Made by a program: the position numbers and the translations under genes. From positions 69,031 through 133,030 of the forward strand of contig CAZVWU010000002.1 of assembly GCA_964631205.1 (NCBI GenBank): DNA of 64,000 bases, in the 5' to 3' direction. Of the stretch, positions 20,775 to 64,000 are shown in pieces. The notes under the pieces were generated by a model. It was not told the DNA's origin. It was given only the letters and a program-made list of their open reading frames with translations, and made no database searches. Numbering within the stretch: the stretch's first letter is position 1; each line of letters begins with the position of its first letter. This stretch comes from an uncultured archaeon. Lineage in GTDB: Archaea; Aenigmatarchaeota; Aenigmatarchaeia; QMZP01; JACQNV01.

Positions 20775-20830
20775 GTTTATTTCCTTTGCTGATATCTCGG
20801 CTTCGAACTTTTCCTGAAGAAGGGCTGCCA
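20775..20830 (+). repeat. weak, partial copy (D) of the multi-hairpin repeat family
   Basis: ATTTCCTTTGCTGATATCTCGG then CTTC..GAAG resembles copy B (ATTTCCTTCGCTATTGCTCGG ... CTTC..GAAG). Lies between the convergent polB and 20852..21352 genes. Confidence 0.25.
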
Positions 20831-21352: not shown

Positions 21353-21413
21353 TAATTGTCCTACTTTGAGAAGCTCTGATTAATGATTGGGCTTCCTGGA
21401 ATTTATACTTAAT

Positions 21414-21693
21414 TATAACACTGTTATATTAATACCCCTTCACTTCGTCTGGAGAAATCATTTCTTTCTATTAAAATCGCTATACATAGGCGTGTTTTTG
21501 ATTAAAATTTTTCTTAAAAAGTTTACTTCATGTGAAATAGGCTTGCTTGGTTTAAAGTTCACATAGAAAGCCTTATAGAGGCTCTGTATAGCGGTTTTTC
21601 AATGTTCCACAGGAAATCATGGGGTGAAGTTCATTTCTTGAAGGGGAAGGTTCATGTGTATAGGCTAATCCTACATATATAACAATGTTATAT
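21414..21693. other. origin-like non-coding locus: two palindromes and inverted ORB-like elements flanking an AT-rich core
   Basis: Palindromes at 21414-21428 and 21678-21692. Minus-strand CTCCAGACGAAGTGAAGGGG at 21435-21454 and plus-strand TTCCACAGGAAATCATGGGGTG at 21605-21626. Nested inverted repeats at 21435-21442/21639-21646 and 21478-21486/21585-21593. The surrounding 416-nt gap has no convincing ORF. Confidence 0.4.
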
Positions 21694-21768
21694 TAGGTAA
21701 TGAAACTTAAATGCCCAATTCCAATAATTAATTATATGGATGTTAAGAAATTCTGCGAGGTGAGGCGA

Positions 21769-22547: not shown

Positions 22548-23354
22548 ATGCCAAGGATTGTTGTTTTGAAGATAGGCGGTTCTGTAATAACAAAAAAGGA
22601 TGAAAACTTGCTGGAGGCCAAAACAGATGTGATAAGGGGGGTAGCCAGAGCAATTAAAAAAGCAATGGAGGAAAGGGAATTTAAATTGGTTTTAGTCCAT
22701 GGCGCTGGCCCATTCGGGCATAAATTAGTTCAGGGATATGGGATAAATGACGGCTTGAAAACAAAAAAAGATGTAGAAGGCTTTGTAAAGACTTGCAGCG
22801 CAATTTCAGACCTTAACAAAATAGTTGTTGGTTGTTTTCTGTCAGAGGGGCTTTTAGCTATCGGGCTCCAGCCGACAGGTTTTGTTGTGCAGAAAAACAA
22901 AAAAATAGAAAAGTTTGGTTGTGAAATAATTGAGGCTTTGCTGGGATTGGAAGAAAATATAATTCCTGTTCTTTGTGGCGACATGGTTATTGATAAAAAA
23001 TTGAAAGCCAGCGTGCTTTCGGGGGATGCAATTGTCCCGTATCTTGCAAGCAAGATTGGGGCATCCCAAGTTTTGATGGGCACTGATGTGGACGGGATTT
23101 TTACTGCTGACCCAAAAAAGGATGCGGAAGCTAACTTTATAAAAGACGTCAATCTAGGGAATCTGGCCGAAGTCTTAAATAATTCAGAAGGCGCCAGCAC
23201 AGTTGATGTTACAGGCGGGATGAAAGGGAAGGTTATGGAAATAAAAGAAAATTTAAGCGGGATAGAGACAATTGTCTTTAACCTAAATATAGAAGGCAAT
23301 TTATATAAAATTCTTACAGGAAAAGAGGCCAAGAAAACAACAATAAATCTATAA
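22548..23354 (+). CDS. isopentenyl phosphate kinase (amino-acid kinase fold)
   Basis: VVLKIGGSVITKKD and VHGAGPFGH motifs, ~268 aa. Start moved to the ATG at 22548. Confidence 0.8.
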   Translation: MPRIVVLKIGGSVITKKDENLLEAKTDVIRGVARAIKKAMEEREFKLVLVHGAGPFGHKLVQGYGINDGLKTKKDVEGFVKTCSAISDLNKIVVGCFLSEGLLAIGLQPTGFVVQKNKKIEKFGCEIIEALLGLEENIIPVLCGDMVIDKKLKASVLSGDAIVPYLASKIGASQVLMGTDVDGIFTADPKKDAEANFIKDVNLGNLAEVLNNSEGASTVDVTGGMKGKVMEIKENLSGIETIVFNLNIEGNLYKILTGKEAKKTTINL

Positions 23355-24570
23355 ACCTGTTGCCAAACTAAAAGCAGGCGCTAAACGAGCAAAATAAAGG
23401 ATTGTTGGAAGAAGGAAAAAGCCCATCATATTGCTTCTCCTGATTTTCAGTGAATTTGCTAATATCCCGATAAAGACGCCGGTTGCGAGGATTAATAATC
23501 CAATAAAACCGCTAAACATGAACGCTAATGCCACCAACAAAACCAAAACCGAGATGTTGATTTTTTGGTAGTTGATGTTCTGGATTTTTCTTATGATGAG
23601 CCTGCCTGCCTTCAAAGTGACTATAGCGGCTATAAACGTTGCGACTAGGCCAACGCCCATTATCAGCATAAGGTCATAAAGTGTAGGTGTGGCAAGGATT
23701 TGTGAAATTGCTGCTGCAGCTCCACTTCTTGTTTTCTCAAGTGTGAAGAATGCGATGAATGTGAAGAATATGTTGGATACATTTATCCCGCCGAGAGCTG
23801 TGAGGAACTCCTTCGCTTTTGCCTTGAAAGTATTGGAGGCTATCACGCCTGCCTGTGAAGATCCTATACCAGGAAGTATGCCTACCAGAAGGCCTGCAAA
23901 CCAGCCAATGAATATGCCCTTGTAGCTTACATCAACTTCACGCGCCTCTGACTGTTTGGGAATTTCTATGCCCCCCCCCCCAGCTTAGGAGGATGCCGCT
24001 TAACCCAAACATACCTGTCAGGGCTGGGAAAATTGAGGTTGATGGAAAGCTTCCAAGCGAGATTGCCCCGAAAATTCCGGACAGCAGAAAAATCAGCGCT
24101 GCATAAAACATGCCTTTTCCTTTTTCTGAAATTATCATCCACAAGGCTACAAAAATCAAAAGGTAATGGATATAGGCGCTTAAATTATTGTAAAGGATTG
24201 GAAGGATCTGGAAAAGTAAAGGAAATGTTAGGATCGTGAGCAGCGCTGCTCCTACCCCGCCAATTGTCGTCAAGAAAAGGGCTTCATATGCCTTGCCCTC
24301 AAGCATCATTTTGTGGCCAGGCAAAACAGAAAGTTCTGTCCCTGCTTCAGGCGCACCGAACAAAATTGACTGGATGAATTCTGTAAAGATGTTCGTGATA
24401 GATAAAGAGACTATGAACGCAATAATCGAATATACTGGAAACCCTGACAGAAGTATTGGTGAAGACAAAATAATTGCAAGGATTGTGTTGGGGTGGATGC
24501 CGGGGATAAGGCCTGTCGCTGTGCCGACAACAACTCCTAAGAATATAAATAAAATTAGTTCGAAGAACAT
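23349..24570 (-). pseudogene. TctA/DUF112-family membrane transporter split by a +1 frameshift in a G11 tract
   Basis: ORFs 23938..24570 and 23349..23846 are collinear halves. Reading G10 instead of G11 gives ...LSWGGGIEIPKQSEAREVDVSYKGIFIGWFAGLLVGILPGIGSSQAGV... Total length is 3n+1. Confidence 0.65.
23971..23981 (-). repeat. G11 (C11 on plus strand) homopolymer at the TctA-like frameshift site
   Basis: Read directly as tctatgCCCCCCCCCCCagc. Confidence 0.95.
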
Positions 24571-27358: not shown

Positions 27359-27381
27359 CCTTTCTTTTTGGAAAAGAAAGG
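27359..27381. terminator. perfect 10-bp hairpin between convergent genes
   Basis: CCTTTCTTTT-tgg-AAAAGAAAGG between the tpiA (+) and HTH regulator (-) 3' ends. Confidence 0.4.
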
Positions 27382-28862: not shown

Positions 28863-28940
28863 TTTTATAACCTTGGGGTTTATAAAGGTTTTCCTCAGTT
28901 ATTACTTTTAAATAGCATCCTTGTAAATGTACAACCATAA

Positions 28941-29144
28941 ATATAACATTGTTATATAGTTATTTATTTTCCAGCGACACCCCCCCATTTCTAATGGAAA
29001 ATGCCTTTAAAACTAAAAGTAATTAATTAAATTATAACATTGTTATATTTTAAGTTGTTTGTTTTTAATTTATTTAATCTCCATATGAAATTGTGGGGTG
29101 TCCTACTAATATAACACTGTTATACACCTTAACTTCACATGGAG
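28941..29144. other. candidate replication origin (ORB-like inverted repeats, AT-rich unwinding region, three palindromes)
   Basis: Minus-strand TTCCATTAGAAATGGGGGGGTGTC at 28976-28999 and plus-strand CTCCATATGAAATTGTGGGGTGTC at 29079-29102. A ~78-nt stretch between them has only ~10 G/C. Palindromes at 28942-28956, 29033-29047 and 29110-29124. A weaker ORB-like element is at 29125-29144. Lies directly upstream of orc1/cdc6. Confidence 0.6.
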
Positions 29145-29206
29145 TTTTTAAGTTAAGAGAACATAATTTATTATCTTTTTATTTCTTATGGAACCCCAGG
29201 GAGCTT

Positions 29207-30406
29207 ATGGCTAAACAGCAAACTTTCCAAGACATCTTTTCGAATTATGAGCTTGCAAGCTTGTCTGTTTTTAAAAATAAAGACGTTTTAAGCCCGGATT
29301 TTATCCCAGAAGTCGCTGTCCACAGGGAAAAGCAAATAAAGCAGATAGCCTCAATCCTTGCCCCCTGCCTAAGGAACCTGAAAGTCTCCAACATCTTCCT
29401 TTTTGGCAAAACCGGCACTGGAAAAACAGTCTGCGTCAAGCAAGTCACCCAAGACCTTGAGAAACGCGCGAATAGGATAAAAATTATCTACATCAACTGC
29501 AAAATGAAAAGGGTCTCTGACACAGAATACCGCCTGCTCGCAGAACTTTGCCGTTCCTTCGGCAAGAAAATCCCGCCAACAGGCCTGCCGACAGATGAGA
29601 TCTACAGGATTTTTTACGAGTCAATTGAAGCAGAGAAAAAAAGCATAATTCTTGTGCTGGATGAAATAGACACCCTTGTAAAAAAAACAGGCGACGAGCT
29701 GCTCTACAACCTCACAAGAATCAACCAAGACCTTAAAAACTCAAAAATCTCAATAATTGGGATCTCAAACGATATCATGTTTATTGAAAATTTAGATCCG
29801 AGAGTGAAATCCTCGCTCTCTGAAGAAGAAATCCTTTTCCCGCCATACAACGCCCACCAGCTTCAGGACATCCTTACCCAAAGGACAGAGCAGGGCTTCA
29901 ATCCGTCTGCAGTTGAGCAGGGTGTGATAACAAAATGCGCAGCCCTTGCAGCACAGGAACACGGCGATGCGAGGAAAGCCCTTGACCTCCTGAGAATAGC
30001 CGCAGAACTCGCAGAAAGGGAAAACAAGCCAAAAGTCCTTTTGTCGCACGTGGATATAGCAGAAGAAAAGCTTGATCTTGACAAAACAGTTGAGATAGTT
30101 AAAACCCAGCCAAAGCAGTCGCTTGCTGTCCTTGCAGCCACAATAAGGCTTGTAGAAGCAGGAAGGAAAAACATCCAGACAGGTGACATTTTCGAGCTCT
30201 ACCAGCAGCTCTGCCCCAACGCCGGCCTAAAAAACCTCACACAAAGGAGAGTCTCCGACCTTATAGGGGAACTTGATATGCTTGGCATCCTGACGACAAA
30301 AGTCATCTCAAAAGGCCGCTACGGCAGGACCCGCGAGATCCGCCTCCTTTTAAGCAAGCCGGTTATTGAAAAGATAAAGAAAGTCCTTACTGAAAACTAC
30401 CTCTAA
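29207..30406 (+). CDS. cdc6: Orc1/Cdc6 replication initiator
   Basis: Walker A GKTGTGKT, Walker B LVLDEID, sensor regions and a C-terminal winged helix. Start moved to the ATG at 29207 because the upstream extension covers the ORB elements. Confidence 0.95.
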   Translation: MAKQQTFQDIFSNYELASLSVFKNKDVLSPDFIPEVAVHREKQIKQIASILAPCLRNLKVSNIFLFGKTGTGKTVCVKQVTQDLEKRANRIKIIYINCKMKRVSDTEYRLLAELCRSFGKKIPPTGLPTDEIYRIFYESIEAEKKSIILVLDEIDTLVKKTGDELLYNLTRINQDLKNSKISIIGISNDIMFIENLDPRVKSSLSEEEILFPPYNAHQLQDILTQRTEQGFNPSAVEQGVITKCAALAAQEHGDARKALDLLRIAAELAERENKPKVLLSHVDIAEEKLDLDKTVEIVKTQPKQSLAVLAATIRLVEAGRKNIQTGDIFELYQQLCPNAGLKNLTQRRVSDLIGELDMLGILTTKVISKGRYGRTREIRLLLSKPVIEKIKKVLTENYL

Positions 30407-32740: not shown

Positions 32741-33499
32741 ATGAAATCCTTTATACTAAAGACGGCAAAAGAACAGAACATAATCCCCCTTTTTTATGCA
32801 GAGTCCGGGAGTAGATTATGGGGATTCCACTCAAAAGACTCTGATTTTGATATAAGGGGAATCCACCTCATTCCAAGAGAAGATTATTTTAAAATAACCA
32901 AATCAAAAGATGTGGTCGAAATAATGGAAAGCGAAAAAGACTTTGTAAGCTTTTCCATAGACAAGGCCTTCTCCTTACTTTCCTCAAGCAACCCAAGTTT
33001 ATTAGAATGGTTCAGGGGGGATGTGATTTATTTGAATAATATTAAAGGCTATGAAAAACTAAAGTCCGAAGTCCTAAAAAATATAAACCTGAAAGCCCTT
33101 TACCATCACTATGTAAGCATGGGCAAACAAAATTACATAAAATATGTGGAAAAAGAAAAACAATTTACTTACAAAAAAATCCTGTATGTGCTGCGCGGAC
33201 TGTTATCAGCCATTTATATATACAATAAAAACAAAGCCCCGCCTCTTAGAACAGAAAATCTCATAAAAGAATTGGATTTTGAGAAGCCTGCAGAAAACCT
33301 ATTAAACGCGATTCTTGAGAAAAAAAAGGCAGGCTCTGAAAAGCAATTGGTTAAGGAAAAGGATTCTGTAAGAAAAATAATAGATTCGTTATTCGATAAA
33401 ACAAATAAATTGTCAGCTCCAGTTACCGGAAATAAAAAGAAGCTTCTGGAAACACTCAATTCCTTTTCAATAAAAATAAAAGAGGAACAGTACCTATGA
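32741..33499 (+). CDS. predicted nucleotidyltransferase (RlaP/YcgL-like)
   Basis: LFYAESGSRLWGFHSKDSDFDIRGIH matches the GS-x-G...DxD pol-beta-type NTase core. Confidence 0.65.
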   Translation: MKSFILKTAKEQNIIPLFYAESGSRLWGFHSKDSDFDIRGIHLIPREDYFKITKSKDVVEIMESEKDFVSFSIDKAFSLLSSSNPSLLEWFRGDVIYLNNIKGYEKLKSEVLKNINLKALYHHYVSMGKQNYIKYVEKEKQFTYKKILYVLRGLLSAIYIYNKNKAPPLRTENLIKELDFEKPAENLLNAILEKKKAGSEKQLVKEKDSVRKIIDSLFDKTNKLSAPVTGNKKKLLETLNSFSIKIKEEQYL

Positions 33500-33864
33500 A
33501 AACTTATGCAAAAGGCGCGCGCGCGGAGCTCGAGCTCCTGCATTTTTTAAATTCAAAAGGCTTTGCAGTAATAAGGGCGCCTTCTTCCGGAGGAGACCTT
33601 TCACCTGTTGATGTGGTCGCAATAAAGAGAGGGCTGATAATCGCAATAGAATCCAAAAACCATGCCAAGAAACCAAAGCTCCCACAGGACAGAATAGACC
33701 GCCTGAAAGAATGGTCAGACAAAGCCGGAGCTATCACCTTTTTAGGCTGGCGCACAAAAAACAAATGGCTTTTCCTCCAGCTAAAAGACGTGATAGAAAA
33801 CAAGTATGGGGACGAGAACTGGTTTGGGATGGAAAATTTTCTAAACGCTTTGGATTTCAGATAG
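33496..33864 (+). CDS. hjc: Holliday junction resolvase Hjc
   Basis: KGARAELELLHFLNSKGFAVIRAPSSGG...DVVAIK...IESK layout of archaeal Hjc. ATGA overlap with the upstream gene. Confidence 0.85.
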   Translation: MKTYAKGARAELELLHFLNSKGFAVIRAPSSGGDLSPVDVVAIKRGLIIAIESKNHAKKPKLPQDRIDRLKEWSDKAGAITFLGWRTKNKWLFLQLKDVIENKYGDENWFGMENFLNALDFR

Positions 33865-35378: not shown

Positions 35379-36359
35379 ATGGATAATGACACAAGGCTCT
35401 TGGAAATGGCACTCAGAACAGAACCCACAGACATTAAAACAGCCTTGCGTTTCTCCAACGCTTATCTAAGGAGCGGCGAGTTAAGGGAAGCTTACCTGAC
35501 ATTGCTGGAAGCAGATGCAGTGTTTCCAGACATCCCTGAAGTGAAAGCGTTGCTAAACCAAATCAATCTCACAGACTTCGCAAATTACGAAATGGTTTCA
35601 GGCAGAAATTATAACGACGGCCTCCAAACTTTGAGAGCTGGAGACACTTCGCTTCAACCATATGTTATAATAGATGGCGAAAAGCTTGCAAGGCCTCTAG
35701 ACCTATCGGAGATCGCTAAATCAAGGCTGGAAGAATATGCTCTAATAGATGACCAAAGGCTTGCAAGGCCTCTAGATGGCCTATGGGAGATCTTTCTATG
35801 GAAGATCCTTAAATTAAGGCTGGAAGACCCATGGGAGATCGGTAAATCAAGGCTGACAAACCCAATCCCGTCAGGTGAACATCAGAAGTCCTGTGCAGCA
35901 ATAGCTTATAGAGCAGAAGACCCTGATAATTTCAAGTTCATTCGAAGATCAAAAGAACTCATAATACTTCAAAGAAACCCCAGCAGATACCTCCGACTCG
36001 AACCAGGCCAATACGAAAATATCGCCGGAACAGTTCTGAACAGAAAAAGGGCAAAATACAGGAAACCTTTAGAAGAAAAGGAAGTATTGGATCACGAGGG
36101 CTGGAACGCCATTATTCCGGATCCGGAATTGTTAAAAGATTATGTAAAACTAGCATTCGCCGAGCTTAAAATGAACCCCATACACGCAGACACGGAGAAA
36201 GGAATGACTTTCGATATAAGGTCGCAAGAAGAAATATCAGAAATAACTGAAGATCGGCTGCACGCTCTGGACATGTACTACCTCAGCTTCGGCTCTGGTA
36301 CGAGCGACAGACACGACCTTACCAGCAGTCCGCAGTTCGCCCGAGTAGTCCCAAAGTAA
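35379..36359 (+). CDS. hypothetical protein with TPR-like N-terminus and internal tandem repeats
   Basis: Long ORF with repeated LARPLD...EI(A/G)KSRLE peptide units. Confidence 0.5.
   Translation: MDNDTRLLEMALRTEPTDIKTALRFSNAYLRSGELREAYLTLLEADAVFPDIPEVKALLNQINLTDFANYEMVSGRNYNDGLQTLRAGDTSLQPYVIIDGEKLARPLDLSEIAKSRLEEYALIDDQRLARPLDGLWEIFLWKILKLRLEDPWEIGKSRLTNPIPSGEHQKSCAAIAYRAEDPDNFKFIRRSKELIILQRNPSRYLRLEPGQYENIAGTVLNRKRAKYRKPLEEKEVLDHEGWNAIIPDPELLKDYVKLAFAELKMNPIHADTEKGMTFDIRSQEEISEITEDRLHALDMYYLSFGSGTSDRHDLTSSPQFARVVPK
35668..35850 (+). repeat. imperfect ~75-90 bp tandem repeats inside a CDS
   Basis: gcttgcaaggcctctaga...gagatc...aaatcaaggctggaaga recurs 2.5 times. Confidence 0.7.
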
Positions 36360-36447
36360 ACTTTTGCTCCAAAAGTTTAATCAAAAAGGGAGGCTAAATT
36401 TCCTTCGCTATTGCTCGGAAATTTTACGGCTTCCACTACCGAAGGCG
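36357..36447 (+). repeat. multi-hairpin repeat family, copy B
   Basis: TAAACTTTTGCTCCAAAAGTTTAATCAAAAAGGGAGGCTAAATTTCCTTCGCTATTGCTCGGAAATTTTACGGCTTCCACTACCGAAGG aligns along its length with the reverse complement of 63421-63523. Confidence 0.75.
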
Positions 36448-57062: not shown

Positions 57063-58104
57063 ATGGTTAGAGTCTCTGCGCCAGGCAATTTGTTTTTACT
57101 GGGGGAACATGCAGTGGTAATATGAAAGGTACGCATTTATAGGCGCTCCTGACAGGCGAACAACTGTGACAACTAGACCAAGAACAGATGGGAAAATATT
57201 TGTTGTTTCTAGAGATTATGGGCAATTCGATGATACTGTAGACGAGGCTGTTAAAAGGCAATTTCCAGACACTGTAAGCTATGGCGCTTCTGATATAGGA
57301 GCCCTCGAAGGCGATGCTGTGATGAACCCTGCTAGAGATGTAATCGGCGAATTTGGAAGAAGATACGGGCTTGGTAATGGCCTGGATATTTACATAGAAT
57401 CTAATATTTCCAGAACAGGTGGAATGAGTAGTTCGACGGGATTGTCCTGTTCATTATGGGGCGCACTTAGCCAGCAAGTCAGGCACACTGTTACTAAAGA
57501 TGAATTCTGGGGAATTGCTTATCCTGTAAACGTGAAAGTTCATGGAGGAGCAGCTTCCGGAGCTGAAATCCATTCAAGTGTTCATGGGGGCTACCACAAA
57601 GTCAGGATAGACAGAAGTTCAGGAAAGCCAGTTGCAGTTGCACAAAAATTAGCAGGCATAGCTCCTTGTACACTAATAGTTGGCAATTCTGGTGTCAGAA
57701 CACAAACAAGAAAGACAGTCCCTTATGTAGCCGAAGGAAGAAGAAATGACACAGCTTCTTATGAAGCTGTATTTACACAAATAGGGCTACTGACAGAAAA
57801 GGCAACAGGATTATTTGAATCTGGTGATCTAAGTGGTGTAGGGTCCTGTATGGACGAAGACCATGAACTTCTTGCAAGAGAATTGGGGGTCTCCCATCCA
57901 AAGCTAAACAGGATGGCAAGAGCAGCTAAAAATGCAGGTGCATTTGGAGCTAAAATGGCTGGTGGCGGAAAGGGCGGAATAATAATAGCGCTTGCGAATC
58001 CAGATACAGAGTGGGACGTGACTCATGCGATACAGATGGTTGGTGCAGAAGAGGTTTATAAAACAGTTCTCGGCGGAGAAGGATTAAAAATAGAAGAAGG
58101 TTAA
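57063..58104 (+). pseudogene. mevalonate-kinase-like GHMP kinase (paralog A) with a +1 frameshift at ~57120
   Basis: ATG 57063 gives MVRVSAPGNLFLLGEHAVV then a stop. The next frame continues YERYAFIGAPDRRTTVTTRPRTDGKIFVVS, collinear with paralog B. GGMSSSTG and GGGKGG motifs. Length is 3n+1. Confidence 0.7.
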
Positions 58105-58170
58105 TTGTTCTGTAGTACGTGCAAGCGGTAATAAGTTTATAAAGCTTCCTGCCAATAACTGCTAATTCAT

Positions 58171-59220
58171 ATGTCAAAATTTTCTGCGCCAGGTAATGTG
58201 TTCTTTTTAGGCGAGCATTCAATAGTCTATGGAAGGCCGGCTATTGTAGCTGCTGCTAATTTCAGGACGCACGCCCACGTAAAGAAAAGGGAAGACAATA
58301 AAATTGTTCTTAATTCTGAAAACTATGGAAGTTTTGAGCACACCTTAGAAGATTTAAAAAATAAAGAGTGGGTTGTTAAACTCGCAACACCAACAGAGCA
58401 GGCAAAAAATGATTACAAGCCTGATGGGAAAATAATGGAAGTTCTTGCTCCAGCTAAAGATTTGATAGGAAGACTGGCACAAATTCATGATTTAAAAAAT
58501 GGGTTTGAATTGAATTTAAAATCAGAAATTCCAAAGGAATCTGGTGGAATGAGCTCGTCTACAGCTTTCTTGTCTTCTGTCTTGGGGGCTTTAAATCACG
58601 AATTCGAATTGGGTATAGACCACCAGAATTTTTTTGATGTGCTTCTTCCATTCCAAATAAAAATCCATGGAGGAGCCGCTTCAGGAGCTGAAATAACTTC
58701 AAGCTCCCTAGGCGGCTATAACTGGGTAAAAAGAGATTTAACAAAAACACCACCTGTTTTGGAAAGAAAAAATCTGGGGAAGCAAGATTTCAATTTAGTT
58801 ATTGGAAATACAGGTGTAGCTGGATTAACAGCAGAGACAGTTCCATATGTCAGAAGCGGCTTTAATGGGGACAATTCTTCTTATAACGCGGTTTTTGACA
58901 GGATAGCAGAGCTTGTTTCAGCAGCTGAAAAAGCAATTAAGTCAGGGGATGCAAAATTATTAGGGCAATTAATGGATGAAGACCATGAACTTTTGGCAAG
59001 GGATTTAGGCGTCTCCCACCCAAAATTAAACAAGCTTGTTGATACTGCCAGAAAAGCTGGAGCGTATGGTGCAAAGCTTTCTGGTGGAGGGAAGGGCGGT
59101 GTAATTGTTGCTTTGGTAAATAAAGACTCACAGGAAAAGGTTGCAAAAGCAATACAGGCAGCAGGCGGTCATGCTTATCTGACAACTGTTGGCGGGCACG
59201 GTTTGCAAAAACACGACTAA
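58171..59220 (+). CDS. mvk: mevalonate kinase (GHMP kinase, paralog B)
   Basis: SAPGNVFFLGEHSIVYGRPAI, GGMSSSTA and KLSGGGKGG motifs. Confidence 0.75.
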   Translation: MSKFSAPGNVFFLGEHSIVYGRPAIVAAANFRTHAHVKKREDNKIVLNSENYGSFEHTLEDLKNKEWVVKLATPTEQAKNDYKPDGKIMEVLAPAKDLIGRLAQIHDLKNGFELNLKSEIPKESGGMSSSTAFLSSVLGALNHEFELGIDHQNFFDVLLPFQIKIHGGAASGAEITSSSLGGYNWVKRDLTKTPPVLERKNLGKQDFNLVIGNTGVAGLTAETVPYVRSGFNGDNSSYNAVFDRIAELVSAAEKAIKSGDAKLLGQLMDEDHELLARDLGVSHPKLNKLVDTARKAGAYGAKLSGGGKGGVIVALVNKDSQEKVAKAIQAAGGHAYLTTVGGHGLQKHD

Positions 59221-59639
59221 GACATAACCTGGAAATCAATATCACTCACAGCACCCTTTCTTCTCACACCTAATTGCTCCAGACAGTAAACAACTCTCTG
59301 TATAATATCCTTGTCCTTTTCGAGCTCCTGCCTATTCTTTAATACCTCTATAGCAATTTCCCTGTAAACACCTTTTAGATTCCTGCCAATTTCGAGTATT
59401 ATATGAGTACAGCTCTGCCTAATCTTTTTATCCCCGGTATCAAGCTTGTTAATAAGAAAATCAAAACCTTCTCTTCCAGCTGCCGTGAAAATCGCGAATA
59501 CCATATAATTAACTCTCCTAACCCTTTCTGCGAACTGCTCATCTATAGTACCCAAGGCGTTCATTATCTCTACATACCTATCCAACGATTCGCACTGTTG
59601 AAACTGTCCAACCAGCGAATCGAAATTTTCTTTTCCCAT
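59217..59639 (-). CDS. hypothetical helical protein (140 aa)
   Basis: ORF only. Confidence 0.4.
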   Translation of the reverse strand: MGKENFDSLVGQFQQCESLDRYVEIMNALGTIDEQFAERVRRVNYMVFAIFTAAGREGFDFLINKLDTGDKKIRQSCTHIILEIGRNLKGVYREIAIEVLKNRQELEKDKDIIQRVVYCLEQLGVRRKGAVSDIDFQVMS

Positions 59640-59783
59640 AGCATAAAGTGACGTGCGCTAACGAATTCTCTGCGCTGGACATGTTAGCACAACATCACTA
59701 CTTATACATGATAATGCAATTTATTAACTTTTGTTGTCCATAAAGGACTACAACTTTATAAATTCAAAATACAATTGTAAGAT

Positions 59784-60515
59784 ATGGACAAAGAAGAAGT
59801 CTTAAAGCTGTTCGGTTTGGATGAATATGAGATCAAGGTTTATCTCGCCCTTTTGGCATCCGGTTCTGCCAAAGTAAACCAGATAGCAAAAAAGCTTGGC
59901 ATGCCAAGAACAACGGTTTACAGGATCCTAGATTACTTAATACTAAAGGGGCTTGTAAGCTATGTAATAAAATCAGGCATAAAACACTTCGAGACAGCAG
60001 ATCCTAAAAACTTACTTAGTATCTTAAAAGAGAAGCAGAAATATATCGAGGACATATTACCGGAACTTGAAGGCATGAGGGCTTCTTTGAAAGAAAAGCC
60101 GGAAATAGAAGTTTACGAAGGGAAAGAAGGGATAAAATCCATAATGGACGACTTGATAAATGAGGAGAAGACTATATCTGCGTTCTCATCCACCAAAGAT
60201 ATTTTCAACTTACTTCAATATTATACCCCCAACTTTATCAAAAGACGTGTTAAATTTGGAATACACATCAAACTAATCACAGAGAAAACAGAACAAACAA
60301 AAAAAGAACTGAAAGCAAAAGACAGGGTCGAGCTAAGAGAAACAAGATTTATACCCAAAATAGGCCAAATACCGAACACAATATATATCTATGGAAACAA
60401 AGTGGCAATTTTAAACACCGATATAAAAAATCCTCAAGGCATACTGATCCAAAATAAAAATTTCGCAGAAACCCAAAAACTCCTATTCGATTTTATTTGG
60501 GATAAAATCAGTTAA
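59784..60515 (+). CDS. TrmB-family transcriptional regulator
   Basis: LGLDEYEIKVYLALLASGSAKVNQIAKKLGMPRTTVYRILDYLILKGLV winged-helix N-terminus. Confidence 0.85.
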   Translation: MDKEEVLKLFGLDEYEIKVYLALLASGSAKVNQIAKKLGMPRTTVYRILDYLILKGLVSYVIKSGIKHFETADPKNLLSILKEKQKYIEDILPELEGMRASLKEKPEIEVYEGKEGIKSIMDDLINEEKTISAFSSTKDIFNLLQYYTPNFIKRRVKFGIHIKLITEKTEQTKKELKAKDRVELRETRFIPKIGQIPNTIYIYGNKVAILNTDIKNPQGILIQNKNFAETQKLLFDFIWDKIS

Positions 60516-60558
60516 AATATGCCTTTTTAAATCTACCTGAGAAATCCCTTTATTTACT

Positions 60559-61674
60559 ATGCTAAAAGTCTCTGCGCCCGGGAAACTCTTTTTGACAGGC
60601 GAATGGGCTGTTTTGGAGGTTGGAAATCCGGGGATTGTAACAGCAGTAGATAAAAGAGTGTTTGTCGAGCTGGAGGAAGCTGATAGAATTACTCTGGATT
60701 TACCTGAGTTTAATATGGAAAATTTACAAGCGGATTTTGATGGGAGAATTTTGTCATGGTCAAGGCAGATTACTGATAAAGAGAAAACAGACCTGATTTT
60801 TATAAAAGGCGCAATTGAAACAACCCTCCAATATCTGGGAAGCGGCAAAAAATTCAGAATTAAAAGTTATGGCGGAGACACCCAGATGGAGATAAACGGC
60901 CAGAAAAAGAAAATAGGATTTGGCTCCTCTGCAGCTGCGGTGGTGGCAACGGTCGCCGGTTTATTGAATTTTCACGGGTATGACATAAAAAATAGGCAGG
61001 TAAAGGACACTATTTATAAACTCTCAACAATTGCGCATTTTTTTGCACAAGGGAAAGTTGGCTCTGCTTTTGATGTGGCAGCTTCAACCTACGGCGGAAT
61101 GTTTGTTTACAAAAGGTTTGATCCGAAATGGCTCGCAGAAAAACTTAATTCAGGATCTTCTGTAAAGCAAGCTGTGGAAGAAAAGTGGCCTGGATTTGAA
61201 GTCGAAGAATTAACTGTTCCAGAAGACTTTAATCTTCTTGTGGGCTGGACAAAAGATTCAGCATCCACGTCTGCCATGGTAAAGCAGATGGATTCGTTCA
61301 AAACCGGAAAACCAGAAGAGTATAAAAAATGTTATGATAATATCGCAAACCTAGTAAGAGAACTTATACCAGAGTGGAAGAATTTTAATAAAGAAGCTTT
61401 TGTTGAAATCCTAAAACAAAACCAAAATCATCTAAGAGAACTTGGCCAACTTTCTGGCGTAAACATAGAAACACCAGAGCTGAAAAAAATGGCTGAGATC
61501 GCAAACGCAAATGGAGCTGCTGGAAAGCTTTCTGGAGCAGGTGGAGGGGATTGCGGCATAGCTGTATGCTTTGATTCTGAAACAGCCAGCAAAATCAGGG
61601 AAGAATGGACAAAAGCTGGGATATACCCAATAGATACCGCATTGGACAAAGATGGTGTAAGAATAGAAAACTGA
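60559..61674 (+). CDS. phosphomevalonate kinase-like GHMP kinase (ERG8 type)
   Basis: SAPGKLFLTGEWAVLEVGNPGIVTAVD, GFGSSAAAVVA and KLSGAGGGDCG motifs. Confidence 0.7.
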   Translation: MLKVSAPGKLFLTGEWAVLEVGNPGIVTAVDKRVFVELEEADRITLDLPEFNMENLQADFDGRILSWSRQITDKEKTDLIFIKGAIETTLQYLGSGKKFRIKSYGGDTQMEINGQKKKIGFGSSAAAVVATVAGLLNFHGYDIKNRQVKDTIYKLSTIAHFFAQGKVGSAFDVAASTYGGMFVYKRFDPKWLAEKLNSGSSVKQAVEEKWPGFEVEELTVPEDFNLLVGWTKDSASTSAMVKQMDSFKTGKPEEYKKCYDNIANLVRELIPEWKNFNKEAFVEILKQNQNHLRELGQLSGVNIETPELKKMAEIANANGAAGKLSGAGGGDCGIAVCFDSETASKIREEWTKAGIYPIDTALDKDGVRIEN

Positions 61675-62774: not shown

Positions 62775-62795
62775 CTTATATAACAGTGTTATATA
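62775..62795. promoter_or_regulatory. palindrome copy 7, extended to 21 nt (TTATATAACAGTGTTATATAA); possible promoter/operator for the downstream minus-strand non-coding region
   Basis: Read directly. Both halves contain TATA-like sequence. Confidence 0.5.
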
Positions 62796-62878
62796 AACTA
62801 GAGTGACTGCCCGAGTATTTAATCGAACTTTTCCAAACATGAATTAAATAAAGCAGCGGCTACTTCTATTAAAAGTTG

Positions 62879-62961
62879 AAAAATTTCTTGAGCCGAAGCG
62901 AAAGAAATTCAGTTTTCTTTTAGTTCAGTTTTTCTTTGGATAGCGTTACCAGAAAGAAAAA
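62879..62961 (-). repeat. multi-hairpin repeat family, copy C, ~30 nt past the 23S 3' end
   Basis: aatttctt-gagccgaagcga-aagaaatt plus ttttctttgg...ccagaaagaaaa, in the same order and orientation as copy A. Confidence 0.6.
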
Positions 62962-63420
62962 GTGATGGGTGAGTTAGATTCCAATTGACAGAGAGGACTC
63001 AGTTGGGGGTTGGTGACCGTGAGCTGAATGCCTCGTTACCTCGGCACTTACACCCCGGTTCCATCAAACCTGTCGTCTACAGGACCCTCCTTCGCGCTCC
63101 GCTATTAGAGGATGGACGACTTGAATTATTTTTCGCAAGTCGTCGGTCTGTCGCCTAGCAGGTTGCGAAATAGTTGCCTCTTTTCAGGGACGGGTTCGCG
63201 CTTAGATGCTTTCAGCGCTAATCCGCCAATCGCGTAGCTACCCAGCAACACAGTGATGACTGGTACACCAGAGGCGACGGTGCAGTGTTCCTTTCGTACT
63301 AATTGCACCTTCCCTTCAGGCAACTGACACCTTCAGTAGATATAGACCGTACTGGCTCGCACCGTACTTAACCCAGCTAACGTGGCTTTTTGATGGGTGA
63401 ACACCCCCACCCTTGGCTGC

Positions 63421-63523
63421 TTTCAGAACTTGTTCTTCGTGGAAGGCGTAAAAATTTCTGAACCGAAGTGAAGAAATTTTAGCCTCCTCTTTTGATTAAC
63501 CTTTTCTCTTGAAGAAAAGGTTA
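63421..63523 (-). repeat. multi-hairpin repeat family, copy A: 103-nt insertion in the 23S rRNA (H91-equivalent loop)
   Basis: Interrupts CCUGGCUGUGCAGCA / GCAGCCAAGGGU. Flanked by gctgc at 63416-63420 and 63525-63529. Confidence 0.7.
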
Positions 63524-63587
63524 TGCTGCACAGCCAGGAGAAGCCGAGCCGACGGCGGAGAAGCAACGCGCGGGGTCAATTTGTTCC

Positions 63588-63766
63588 CACGAGTTCTCAT
63601 TTAATTTATCATCTAGAGTATAGACTACTCTAATCAAATTCCGCCATCAAAACTGAAATAAATTGTTGCTGCAATCTTTCAGTTAATGGTCTTTCTACTA
63701 ATAACCTGACACTATAAGTCCATTCAGTTAAACAGTAGTAAAAAGAAGATAAGAGAACTTGCGGCA
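63588..63766 (-). other. second ~180-nt insertion (intron or expansion) in 23S rRNA, H89-equivalent region
   Basis: Interrupts GCGAAAGUUCC / GGAACAAAUUGACCCCGC. Closed by AGUUCUC/GAGAACU (63753-63759 with 63592-63598) and GUUCC/GGAAC (63767-63771 with 63583-63587). Confidence 0.6.
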
Positions 63767-64000
63767 GGAACTTTCGCCCGCCACGACTCCATTACCCCCG
63801 AGATAGCTTTTCTGTTAAACCTAGCCCCCAGTAATGAGGACATAAGGGATCGCTAAGCCGCACTTTCGTGTTAGGATCTCTTACTGGCAAAGATCCTATC
63901 AAGCCTGCTTTTGCCTTTACACTCTTTTCCGGATTTCTGACCCGGATGAGCAGACCTTAGGGCGCTTTCGATGCTTTGTCGAAAGCGTACCGCTTGCTGG

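Follow-up and report, generated by a model that had tools for sequence, protein, structure and literature searches.

Why should a structured sequence of about 100 nt sit inside a core helix of 23S ribosomal RNA (rRNA) and turn up again beside that gene and between protein genes of the same genome? The question is raised by a 64,000-nt stretch of contig CAZVWU010000002.1, from an uncultured archaeon of the Aenigmatarchaeota (here called the window), in which an earlier note, made from the sequence alone, had singled out three such modules, copies A, B and C. These are members of an ~85-nt two-hairpin repeat family that we named R1. Our preferred explanation, which we hold to be probable, is that copy A is the R1 core of a bulge-helix-bulge (BHB) intron in helix 91 (H91) of the 23S rRNA, and that R1 is a non-autonomous mobile element surviving in introns and at gene boundaries.

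A two-hairpin repeat family

The R1 core of copy A occupies 63439-63523 on the minus strand (91.4 bits in a cmsearch with the R1 model, and by its fold) and comprises hairpin 1 UAACCUUUUC...GAAAAGGUUA, linker AUCAAAAGA and a long hairpin 2, GGAGGC...GCCUUCC. Copy B, at 36357-36436 on the plus strand (92.5 bits), is intergenic and lies between convergent genes. Copy C, at 62869-62965 on the minus strand (34.8 bits, E 4.5e-5), is degenerate, starts 25 nt beyond the 23S 3' end and has the outer stem of hairpin 2 swapped for AAAAG/CUUUU. The covariance model was built from 10 copies, including A and B and leaving out C, whose score is therefore independent. With a mean column identity of 68% in the alignment of A, B and C, and with copies unseen by the model reaching 68-98 bits elsewhere, the view that the three form one structured family stands. 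The model recognises one further site in the window and no more: a partial copy at 21492-21525 on the minus strand (23.5 bits, E 0.01), made of hairpin 1 and the TTAATCAAAAA linker only, which was found as an inverted match to copy B and whose linker reads TTAATCAAAA. Two weaker relatives named in the earlier note, at 20775-20830 and 27359-27381, had to be given up, as neither aligned or matched the R1 model, even with the filters off and E up to 10.

The 10-copy consensus has 82 positions, 50 of them invariant columns. Hairpin 1 (UAACCUUUU-loop-AAAAGGUUA) is followed by the linker AUCAAAA, single-stranded and invariant, and then by hairpin 2, built from GGAGGC/GCCUUCC as outer stem, a stem of A/U pairs, an internal loop (2x2, UC/UC) that is conserved, and an apical stem of 2 bp. 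Double (compensatory) changes occur at 6 of the 25 predicted pairs, and the apical stem is found in five Watson-Crick combinations (GC/GC, AG/CU, AC/GU, GU/AC and AU/AU), which bears out the earlier claim that the stems are kept by compensatory changes. The invariance of the linker and loops calls in addition for a recognition function, exerted either by a mobility machinery or by the cell. R1 contains no open reading frame (ORF) and no terminal inverted repeats: judged by the alignment and flanks, its 3' end, GCCTTCCAC, is not an inversion of its 5' end, TAACCTTTT. By eye, R1 carries no C/D box, H/ACA or K-turn signature. It has no match in Rfam 15 at the gathering threshold, which only large-subunit (LSU) rRNA and transfer RNA (tRNA) reach, and an E-value scan of 7 copy-bearing contigs with Rfam returned spurious matches only, in keeping with the suspicion that this is not a described family.

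Some variation within the family was also seen. Certain copies (L010:1040-1095 and L152:700-760, where L numbers denote loci) have an extra 50-nt hairpin, GACATCGATC.../...GATCGATGTC, nested in the apical loop of hairpin 2, so the apex tolerates insertions. In a subfamily at L004:4071-4223, L006:6887-7041 and L158:600-730, a 62-nt 5' module (...GCAGAGATGTCTCGTGTCCTACGCACTCTGCGAGACACGAAGG) takes the place of hairpin 1, and these copies are 90% identical to one another.

Scanning with a covariance model, which the earlier note had proposed, did bring to light further copies in other genomes. The 22-mer TTAATCAAAANNGGAGGCTAAA, common to A and B, occurs in 596 gigabases (Gb) of species-representative genomes at 10 archaeal sites (8 in the uncultured-archaeon metagenome-assembled genome (MAG) CAYPFW01 and 2 in CAYYYJ01) and in one chance bacterial match; it is also present on 10 metagenome contigs. 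A looser gapped pattern, GGAGGCTAAA...CGCCTTCC, gave mostly chance bacterial matches and added 3 useful loci, and a search of viral contigs for R1 found no match. Copies in other genomes that lay outside the training set score 45-98 bits. In total we count 33 copies, about 30 of them beyond the window, in two archaeal MAGs and three metagenomes; the family is present in at least four Aenigmatarchaeota-like genomes or metagenomes. It could be objected that A, B and C merely resemble each other by chance, as AT-rich hairpins of low complexity, since R1 is ~65% A+T, its stems are simple A/T runs and single copies fold with only modest z-scores (-1.6 to -3.7). We give this idea virtually no credence: related archaeal DNA contains a pattern of 20 specified bases 20 times, against a single other occurrence in 596 Gb; copies independent of the model reach 68-98 bits; and fifty columns are invariant in 10 copies. 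Pattern recurrence and independent model scores together refute it.

Probable introns in rRNA and tRNA genes

At its far end the window runs into an archaeal 23S rRNA gene (62990-64000, minus strand; Rfam LSU_rRNA_archaea, 492.8 bits, model positions 2340-2987), of which the 3' 1,011 nt are included before the sequence breaks off. Outside the window, a 27-nt signature taken from this gene matches almost only MAGs named Candidatus Aenigmatarchaeota, which places the organism, a DPANN archaeon, in or near that group. In the Rfam alignment, large inserts appear in two hairpin loops, which by alignment to the E. coli sequence we take to be those of helix 89 (H89) and H91. Both loops belong to the functional core of the ribosome, next to the A-loop, and we know of no retained expansions there. 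Copy A as a whole is the 103-nt (103/104-nt) insert at exactly 63421-63523 (minus strand) in the apical loop of H91, as originally reported and as confirmed here against the Rfam model and 13 intronless relatives. By our own alignment it presumably follows about E. coli position 2534, which to our knowledge is not a listed rRNA intron position.

As the earlier note had suggested doing, we compared orthologous 23S genes. The site is covered by 19 related genes. H91 is uninterrupted in 13, reading CCUGGGCGUGCAGCAGCGCCCAAGG or a close variant, with the forms GCAGCAGC, GUGCAGCAGCAGCC and GUGCAGCAGCGCCC, and the sequence around the insertion bond is GUGCAGCA|GCNNCC. The other 6 carry inserts of 58-80 nt at exactly the bond used in the window. 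On a rough tree from 243 rRNA positions the insert is scattered and sister pairs differ; the closest relative, L025 (87% identity), has identical H91 flanks and no insert. The same comparison disposes of the proposal that two GCAGC pentamers bracketing copy A are a target-site duplication. Intronless relatives read GUGCAGCAGCAGCC or GUGCAGCAGCGCCC, and since they carry both pentamers, these are the native H91 loop and its 3' stem strand. GCAGC was accordingly dropped as an argument for mobility, the actual flanking repeat of R1 being TAA(MC).

A fold at the boundaries, another check suggested at the outset, did yield a BHB junction, in the window in a relaxed form (see below). The motif cut by the archaeal splicing endonuclease is defined as two 3-nt bulges with 4 bp between them (PMC4033280). 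Counting the window there are seven H91 inserts, all of which start with A(U/A)(A/G)(A/G)CC and end with GG(U/C)UCUG(U/C/A)A; those of other lineages have interiors unlike R1 and share with copy A only their ends and architecture. The predicted fold of these ends comprises an exon-exon helix GGGCGU/GCGCC, a central helix of 4 bp in which exon GCAG pairs with intron CUGY, bulges of CA(U/A) (3 nt, 5' strand) and AA(G) (3' strand), and an intron helix h', AACC/GGUU, which covaries to AGCC/GGCU and AAGC/GCUU. Over the seven genes 97% of the cells are paired and 3 of the 4 h' pairs show compensatory changes; none of 500 shuffles attained the observed values, and slid registers collapse. In copy A the intron strand of this junction (GUU, CUGA) is supplied by a host-specific 3' tail of the insert, GAAGAACAAGUUCUGAA, at 63421-63438 on the minus strand (read from the sequence and compared with L013-L029), which lies outside the R1 core and resembles the GGUUCUGYA 3' end of the relatives' inserts.

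In canonical tRNA introns at 37/38 the cut falls after the second bulge nucleotide. Applied to copy A, this rule predicts a 5' cut after GCAGCA (A at 63524) and a 3' cut before G at 63420. Cutting at CA|U and AA|G and joining GCAGCA to GCAGCC would give GUGCAGCAGCAGCC, identical to the loop of intronless L019 and L025. We consider it likely that copy A is spliced out of the 23S pre-rRNA.

The second insert, 185 nt in the H89 loop (63581-63765, minus strand; presumably after about E. coli U2477), is unrelated to R1 in sequence. Its central helix GUUC/GAAC has 4 of 4 pairs, its bulges are CU|G and AA|A, and its intron helix h' is long (CCGC.../...GUGG); removing it leaves GAAAGUUCCUAUUGACC, of native length as in intronless relatives. 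Eight relatives have inserts of 30-347 nt at the identical bond. Counting the window, 6 of 9 genes show all four pairs of the central helix, and the BHB is canonical in the window and in L025. Judged by sequence and predicted fold, the window's H89 insert is a canonical BHB intron. A third insert of ~45 nt was noticed in the same 23S gene, at ~63105-63150 (minus strand), where it occupies the loop of a hairpin that is specific to the clade and lies close to the 3' end: 119 nt separate the anchors in the window versus 74 in relatives, and the extra sequence contains a hairpin GACGACUUG/CAAGUCGUC.

The R1 core was also found in tRNA genes. It lies in the anticodon loop of tRNA-Gly(CCC) in L153 and L010, directly after A37, and after position 37 of tRNA-Ala(UGC) in L151, a tRNA upstream of a 23S gene. 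All three junctions at 37/38 have the canonical helix-bulge-helix-bulge-helix form (hBHBh'), with UUCC/GGAA or GGAG, CA|U, AU|A and CGAGC/GCUUG in L010 and L153, and UUUG/CAAA in L151. As in copy A, a host-specific 3' tail supplies the pairing strand, here for anticodon-loop bases 32-35. The ARAGORN intron option misplaces the L153 intron; once the two inserts of this gene were taken out manually, ARAGORN folded the spliced product as tRNA-Gly(CCC). By their sequence and folding geometry, the R1 copies in tRNA genes are canonical BHB introns.

The R1-bearing tRNA genes are interrupted again, at D-loop and T-loop positions, by introns with a different sequence, (A)UACCCUUUCUCUUUU-loop-AAGAGAAAGCCUUAUAACCC..., which form a second family. 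Members were seen at L010:896-965 and 1155-1230, L153:1560-1640 and L003:560-670, and they resemble the H89 and H91 inserts of L015, L017 and L018 from other Aenigmatarchaeota. The tRNA-Gly of L010 has three introns, the one in the T-loop with a canonical BHB (UUCA/UGAA). Downstream of the R1-bearing tRNA-Ala, the 23S gene of L151 (L151:609-1364) is broken near its 5' end by long inserts, one of which encodes a LAGLIDADG-like peptide (...LVGLMLADGG...).

Gene boundaries, proposed mobility and rival explanations

About 24 R1 copies are intergenic. None of them, copy B included, forms a BHB with its flanks, and a strict BHB search around them found none beyond chance; the intergenic copies are therefore not introns. 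Their 5' ends sit against neighbouring genes with codon precision. The TAA or TGA of R1 is the stop codon of S12, of S11, of a rhomboid protein and of the ORF upstream of copy B: as first noticed in the earlier note, copy B begins at the end of ORF 35379-36359, whose stop codon is formed by its first bases, TAA. In other cases the CA preceding the R1 5' end makes CAT, the ATG of a divergent gene (L3, S3, eIF2-alpha, S24e and a DUF2203 protein). In 6-7 of 8 cases the reading frame that runs across the boundary keeps phase with that ATG, and Pfam alignments start at the N-terminus (e.g. L3). Ribosomal proteins make up seven of the ~22 R1 neighbours, the others including the 3' end of a tRNA-Ser and, for copy C, the 3' flank of the 23S gene. 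Moreover, the 3' strand of hairpin 2, cGnAAATTTTTA(AA)C (also cGnAAATTTTTAAAC), resembles the TFB-recognition element (BRE)/TATA boxes of window genes, the box of R1 being AAATTTTTAAAC and a counterpart before 51435 reading GGAAAGATTTTTAAAC. From the R1 box to the next same-strand ATG the distance is 23 nt both at S7 (L005) and at L004:2117. That the box acts as a promoter is suggestive only.

Evidence for movement comes from the spacer between the S12 and S7 genes. In CAYPFW01 (MAG co1_90) it measures 94 nt, namely R1 plus ~10 nt, as against mostly -8 to +15 nt in the 30 relatives listed, and none of the 79 other S12 loci contains R1. At the filled site the sequence is CAG-TAA-[CC...CCACTAT-TAA]-TTTCATT-ATG, as expected from insertion at the TAA stop codon with duplication of TAA. 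In 6 of 20 intergenic copies, at least 5 nt of the copy's own 5' end are repeated exactly within 22 nt downstream (controls 1.6%, P ~5e-7). The repeat follows each copy's own variant (TAACC, TAAAC or TAAGC), with TAAGC in L154, TAAACT in L009 and TAACCTTT in L007, and at L004:3025 it matches the copy's 5' end at 12 of 14 bases. Where present it is always TAA(MC...), of 3-13 nt, and it is clear in 6-7 of 20 copies. Where R1 lies in an intron, degenerate versions precede the BHB tail: copy A has GAAC, L153 has GAAAC and L151 has TGAAC. This suggests that R1 entered pre-existing short introns beginning UAA(A/C)C. Copies of the same subfamily occur at non-orthologous loci in different genomes, a head-to-tail dimer of R1 lies at L090:6498-6662, and in tblastx of the window against copy-bearing loci the element alone matches, with no synteny. 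Two further comparisons offered no anchor. The orphan ORF upstream of copy B has no homologue with which to find an empty site, and a search for relatives via the neighbouring kinase gene gave none in species-representative genomes and one 7.9-kb Logan contig that ends before the rRNA. None of the 20 ORFs neighbouring R1 copies in 8-kb loci is a transposase.

Our preferred explanation would account for these features as follows. R1 would insert at the DNA level, directed to TAA, its 5' end TAA(A/C)C often being repeated just 3' of the copy, and would persist only at harmless places. One such place would be a pre-existing BHB intron of an rRNA or tRNA gene, where R1 is removed along with the intron; the others would be on top of a gene's TAA stop or immediately ahead of a start codon (TTATG). 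TAA-directed insertion, combined with selection against harmful sites, would explain why copies coincide with stop codons and TTATG starts. Similarly, an intron-bearing H91 would be a target and an intronless one not, because the latter has no TAA. In the pre-rRNA, exon GCAG would pair with CUGA near the intron 3' end, leaving the bulges C-A|U and A-A|G on either side; cleavage of the marked bonds would fall to the tRNA-splicing endonuclease and the joining of GCAGCA to GCAGCC to an RNA ligase, giving the H91 loop of intronless relatives. The earlier idea of a small mobile element or mini-intron gains in substance from the BHB geometry at the H91 boundaries, the patchy occupation of the site, the same core in canonical tRNA introns and the filled versus empty S12-S7 spacer.

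Several observations weigh against this explanation. The central helix of the window's H91 motif, GCAG/CUGA, consists of 3 bp and a G.A mismatch and fails a strict BHB scan, and the 3' bulge faces a U.G pair, so that it shrinks to 2 nt if that pair closes; for these reasons we call the motif a 'relaxed' BHB. Broad-specificity endonucleases, associated with disrupted tRNA genes, have been reported in DPANN archaea (PMC5829648). The 64-kb window itself contains no gene for a splicing endonuclease (EndA), RNA ligase (RtcB), transposase, integrase or reverse transcriptase. Run on 24 Aenigmatarchaeota 23S loci, the R1 model gave no match, the H91 inserts of other lineages included; R1 may have entered an older intron, as we favour, or have evolved from it. 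The 3' direct repeat accompanies only about a third of the copies, and this partial occurrence together with its variable length of 3-13 nt does not fit a classical fixed target-site duplication. The folding energies of the top and bottom strands of R1 do not differ, so that structure at the RNA level cannot be told from structure at the DNA level. Finally, the strong conservation of the unpaired linker and the internal loops may instead reflect a cellular function.

Could copy A simply stay in the mature ribosome? It would then be a retained lineage-specific expansion segment extending H91, perhaps a platform for protein binding, with the copies in ribosomal-protein operons acting as rRNA mimics for feedback. 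The insert does lengthen the H91 helix coaxially, as expansion segments do, the window BHB is imperfect, R1 is enriched beside ribosomal-protein genes (including the S12-S7 intercistronic spacer), and a peripheral hairpin of the same 23S has a further 45-nt extension. We nevertheless regard this as distinctly unlikely. An expansion segment would be inherited vertically in a peripheral helix, whereas the insert is patchily distributed, absent from the closest relative and placed in a core helix beside the A-loop; the H91 and H89 loops are not among the known expansion sites. Two bulges four pairs apart, with cuts that restore the native loop, recur in seven genes with unrelated interiors and again at H89, and the same core occupies tRNA anticodon loops, where removal is obligatory. 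In addition, about half of the copies next to ribosomal-protein genes are antisense to the gene they touch, and the RNA of these could not mimic the rRNA copy.

Another thought, which we hold to be rather improbable, is that R1 chiefly serves the cell in cis, as a processing signal or portable promoter/terminator that marks off transcription units and is maintained by selection, and that the intron copies are by-products. The invariant linker TTAATCAAAA and conserved internal loops agree with it, as do the BRE/TATA-like 3' strand of hairpin 2 and the 23-nt distances from box to ATG at S7 (L005) and L004:2117, which are as expected for leaderless mRNAs. The essential genes L3, S3 and eIF2-alpha begin at the edge of the element, leaving no space for another promoter; copies, which contain T4-T5 runs, also follow stop codons. 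On the other hand, some copies are found between convergent genes or within introns, settings that call for no promoter, relatives run the same operons without R1, the promoter idea is backed by only 2-3 spacings, and covariation of the stems is unexpected in a plain protein-binding DNA site. The shared processing/terminator module offered as an alternative in the earlier note likewise fails for the intron copies, as it cannot explain why R1 is inside introns. The intergenic copies, which abut stop and start codons and carry a BRE/TATA-like box, may have such a role.

We also entertain, tentatively and with considerable doubt, a bolder form of the mobile-element explanation, in which R1 is currently active, integrates at TAA(CC)-like sites, possibly via a circular or tandem intermediate, creates or enlarges BHB introns, and rewires ribosomal-protein operons through its outward BRE/TATA box. 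A circular or tandem intermediate would explain both the terminal redundancy and the L090:6498-6662 dimer.

Known systems, the rest of the window and wider meaning

Archaeal rRNA BHB introns are known from 16S and 23S rRNA of Thermoproteales and, beside group I introns, from LSU rRNA of DPANN archaea (PMC4496867, PMC6125680). Like these, copy A breaks a conserved core helix, is patchy among relatives and has a predicted junction of two bulges with a 4-bp helix between them, such that a cut after the second bulge nucleotide would restore the native sequence. It differs in being only 103 nt long, in having no homing-endonuclease ORF and one central mismatch, and in that its interior is a genome-wide repeat. 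Families of tRNA introns undergoing 'transposition' in Thermoproteales are reportedly the subject of Fujishima et al. 2010. Such families, as presented in PMC4033280 and PMC4090602, share with R1 near-identical, ORF-less introns in different RNA genes, within and between related genomes, which implies spread by a mechanism, probably at the DNA level, that is described as unknown. Unlike them, R1 is found beyond RNA genes too, in operon spacers and at stop and start codons, where it has no BHB; it has TAA(MC) flanks, belongs to a DPANN lineage and is found in both rRNA and tRNA.

Bacterial miniature inverted-repeat transposable elements (MITEs, e.g. Neisseria Correia), repetitive extragenic palindromes and their mosaic elements (REP/BIME) and Rickettsia palindromic elements are, like R1, ~100 nt long, structured, multi-copy and ORF-less; they are tolerated at gene ends with possible promoter or terminator side-effects and can sit in RNA or protein genes. 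R1 differs in lacking terminal inverted repeats, in having hairpins unlike each other and in a flank repeat of variable length that resembles its own 5' end. Dispersed copies and filled and empty sites are shared with classical MITEs, while terminal inverted repeats and a fixed duplication of arbitrary sequence are missing. Palindrome-associated elements derived from IS200/IS605 (PATEs) likewise have no inverted terminal repeats, have subterminal hairpins, and possess a short conserved left-junction sequence able to pair with the foot of hairpin 1 (TAACC/GGTTA in R1). In R1, however, no TnpA or TnpB was seen within the 8-kb loci, the left and right hairpins are unlike, and the pentanucleotide covaries within hairpin 1. 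Without terminal inverted repeats or a transposase, and with a variable repeat, R1 fits neither classical MITEs nor, demonstrably, IS200/IS605 derivatives. Integron attC sites were considered as well; neither this analogy nor that to IS200/IS605 is supported by arrangement or neighbours. Bacterial 23S intervening sequences are, like copy A, short structured inserts in rRNA helix loops with a patchy distribution, are taken out after transcription as copy A probably is, and differ from it in lying in peripheral H25 and H45 and in being excised by RNase III without religation, which leaves fragmented rRNA, and without BHB geometry.

The rest of the window contains archaeal housekeeping genes, among them PolB, Cdc6, STT3, mevalonate-pathway enzymes, phosphoenolpyruvate (PEP) synthase and L10e. 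Just upstream of the Cdc6/Orc1 gene (29093-30406), a palindrome (A)TATAACATTGTTATAT occurs in two copies at 28939-29060, and the cumulative GC skew peaks at ~26-28 kb; the region upstream of this gene is probably a replication origin with origin-recognition boxes. The same palindrome TATAACAnTGTTATA is also found at 21410-21430, 21680-21697 and 62775-62795, the last just downstream of copy C. Recurring in other intergenic regions, it is not restricted to the putative origin and could be a transcription-factor or bidirectional TATA site. The ORF that ends at copy B, 35379-36359, is an orphan without a homologue among 5.8 billion proteins; it has internal tandem-like repeats of 75-93 nt (35651-35855) and a weak TPR match. 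Ten consecutive G (23961-23970) divide a TctA-family transporter gene at 23349-24570 (minus strand) into two ORFs, which could reflect an assembly-error frameshift, phase variation or a pseudogene. At 32741-33864 an RlaP-type nucleotidyltransferase gene, of an RNA-repair pathway family, is followed by the Holliday-junction resolvase Hjc. Three paralogous GHMP-kinase genes stand in a row at 57166-61674, with conserved 5' ends (repeat family D1). They adjoin a diphosphomevalonate-decarboxylase-like gene and the gene for 3-hydroxy-3-methylglutaryl (HMG)-CoA reductase, making an expanded mevalonate cluster that is unusual for a DPANN genome.

What appears to be new, as far as sequence comparison can tell, is a single structured core common to an rRNA intron, tRNA introns and free intergenic copies in a DPANN lineage, with a TAA(MC) repeat, an empty site and no Rfam match. 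Aenigmatarchaeota have heavily interrupted genes for rRNA and tRNA, with consequences for surveys based on rRNA and for the prediction of tRNAs, and in a minimal genome a repeat can come to separate a ribosomal-protein gene from its former promoter. How protein-less archaeal BHB introns are gained and spread is an open question in the field. Here one conserved structured sequence is met in three states, within a 23S core helix, within canonical tRNA introns and free-standing at gene boundaries, and this makes intron spread testable: one can ask which activity cleaves and rejoins at TAA(CC), and whether it works through a DNA or an RNA intermediate. If R1 is active as proposed, the 'transposition' of protein-less archaeal introns would have a first concrete vehicle, and the transcription of ribosomal-protein operons would be rewired in reduced DPANN genomes.

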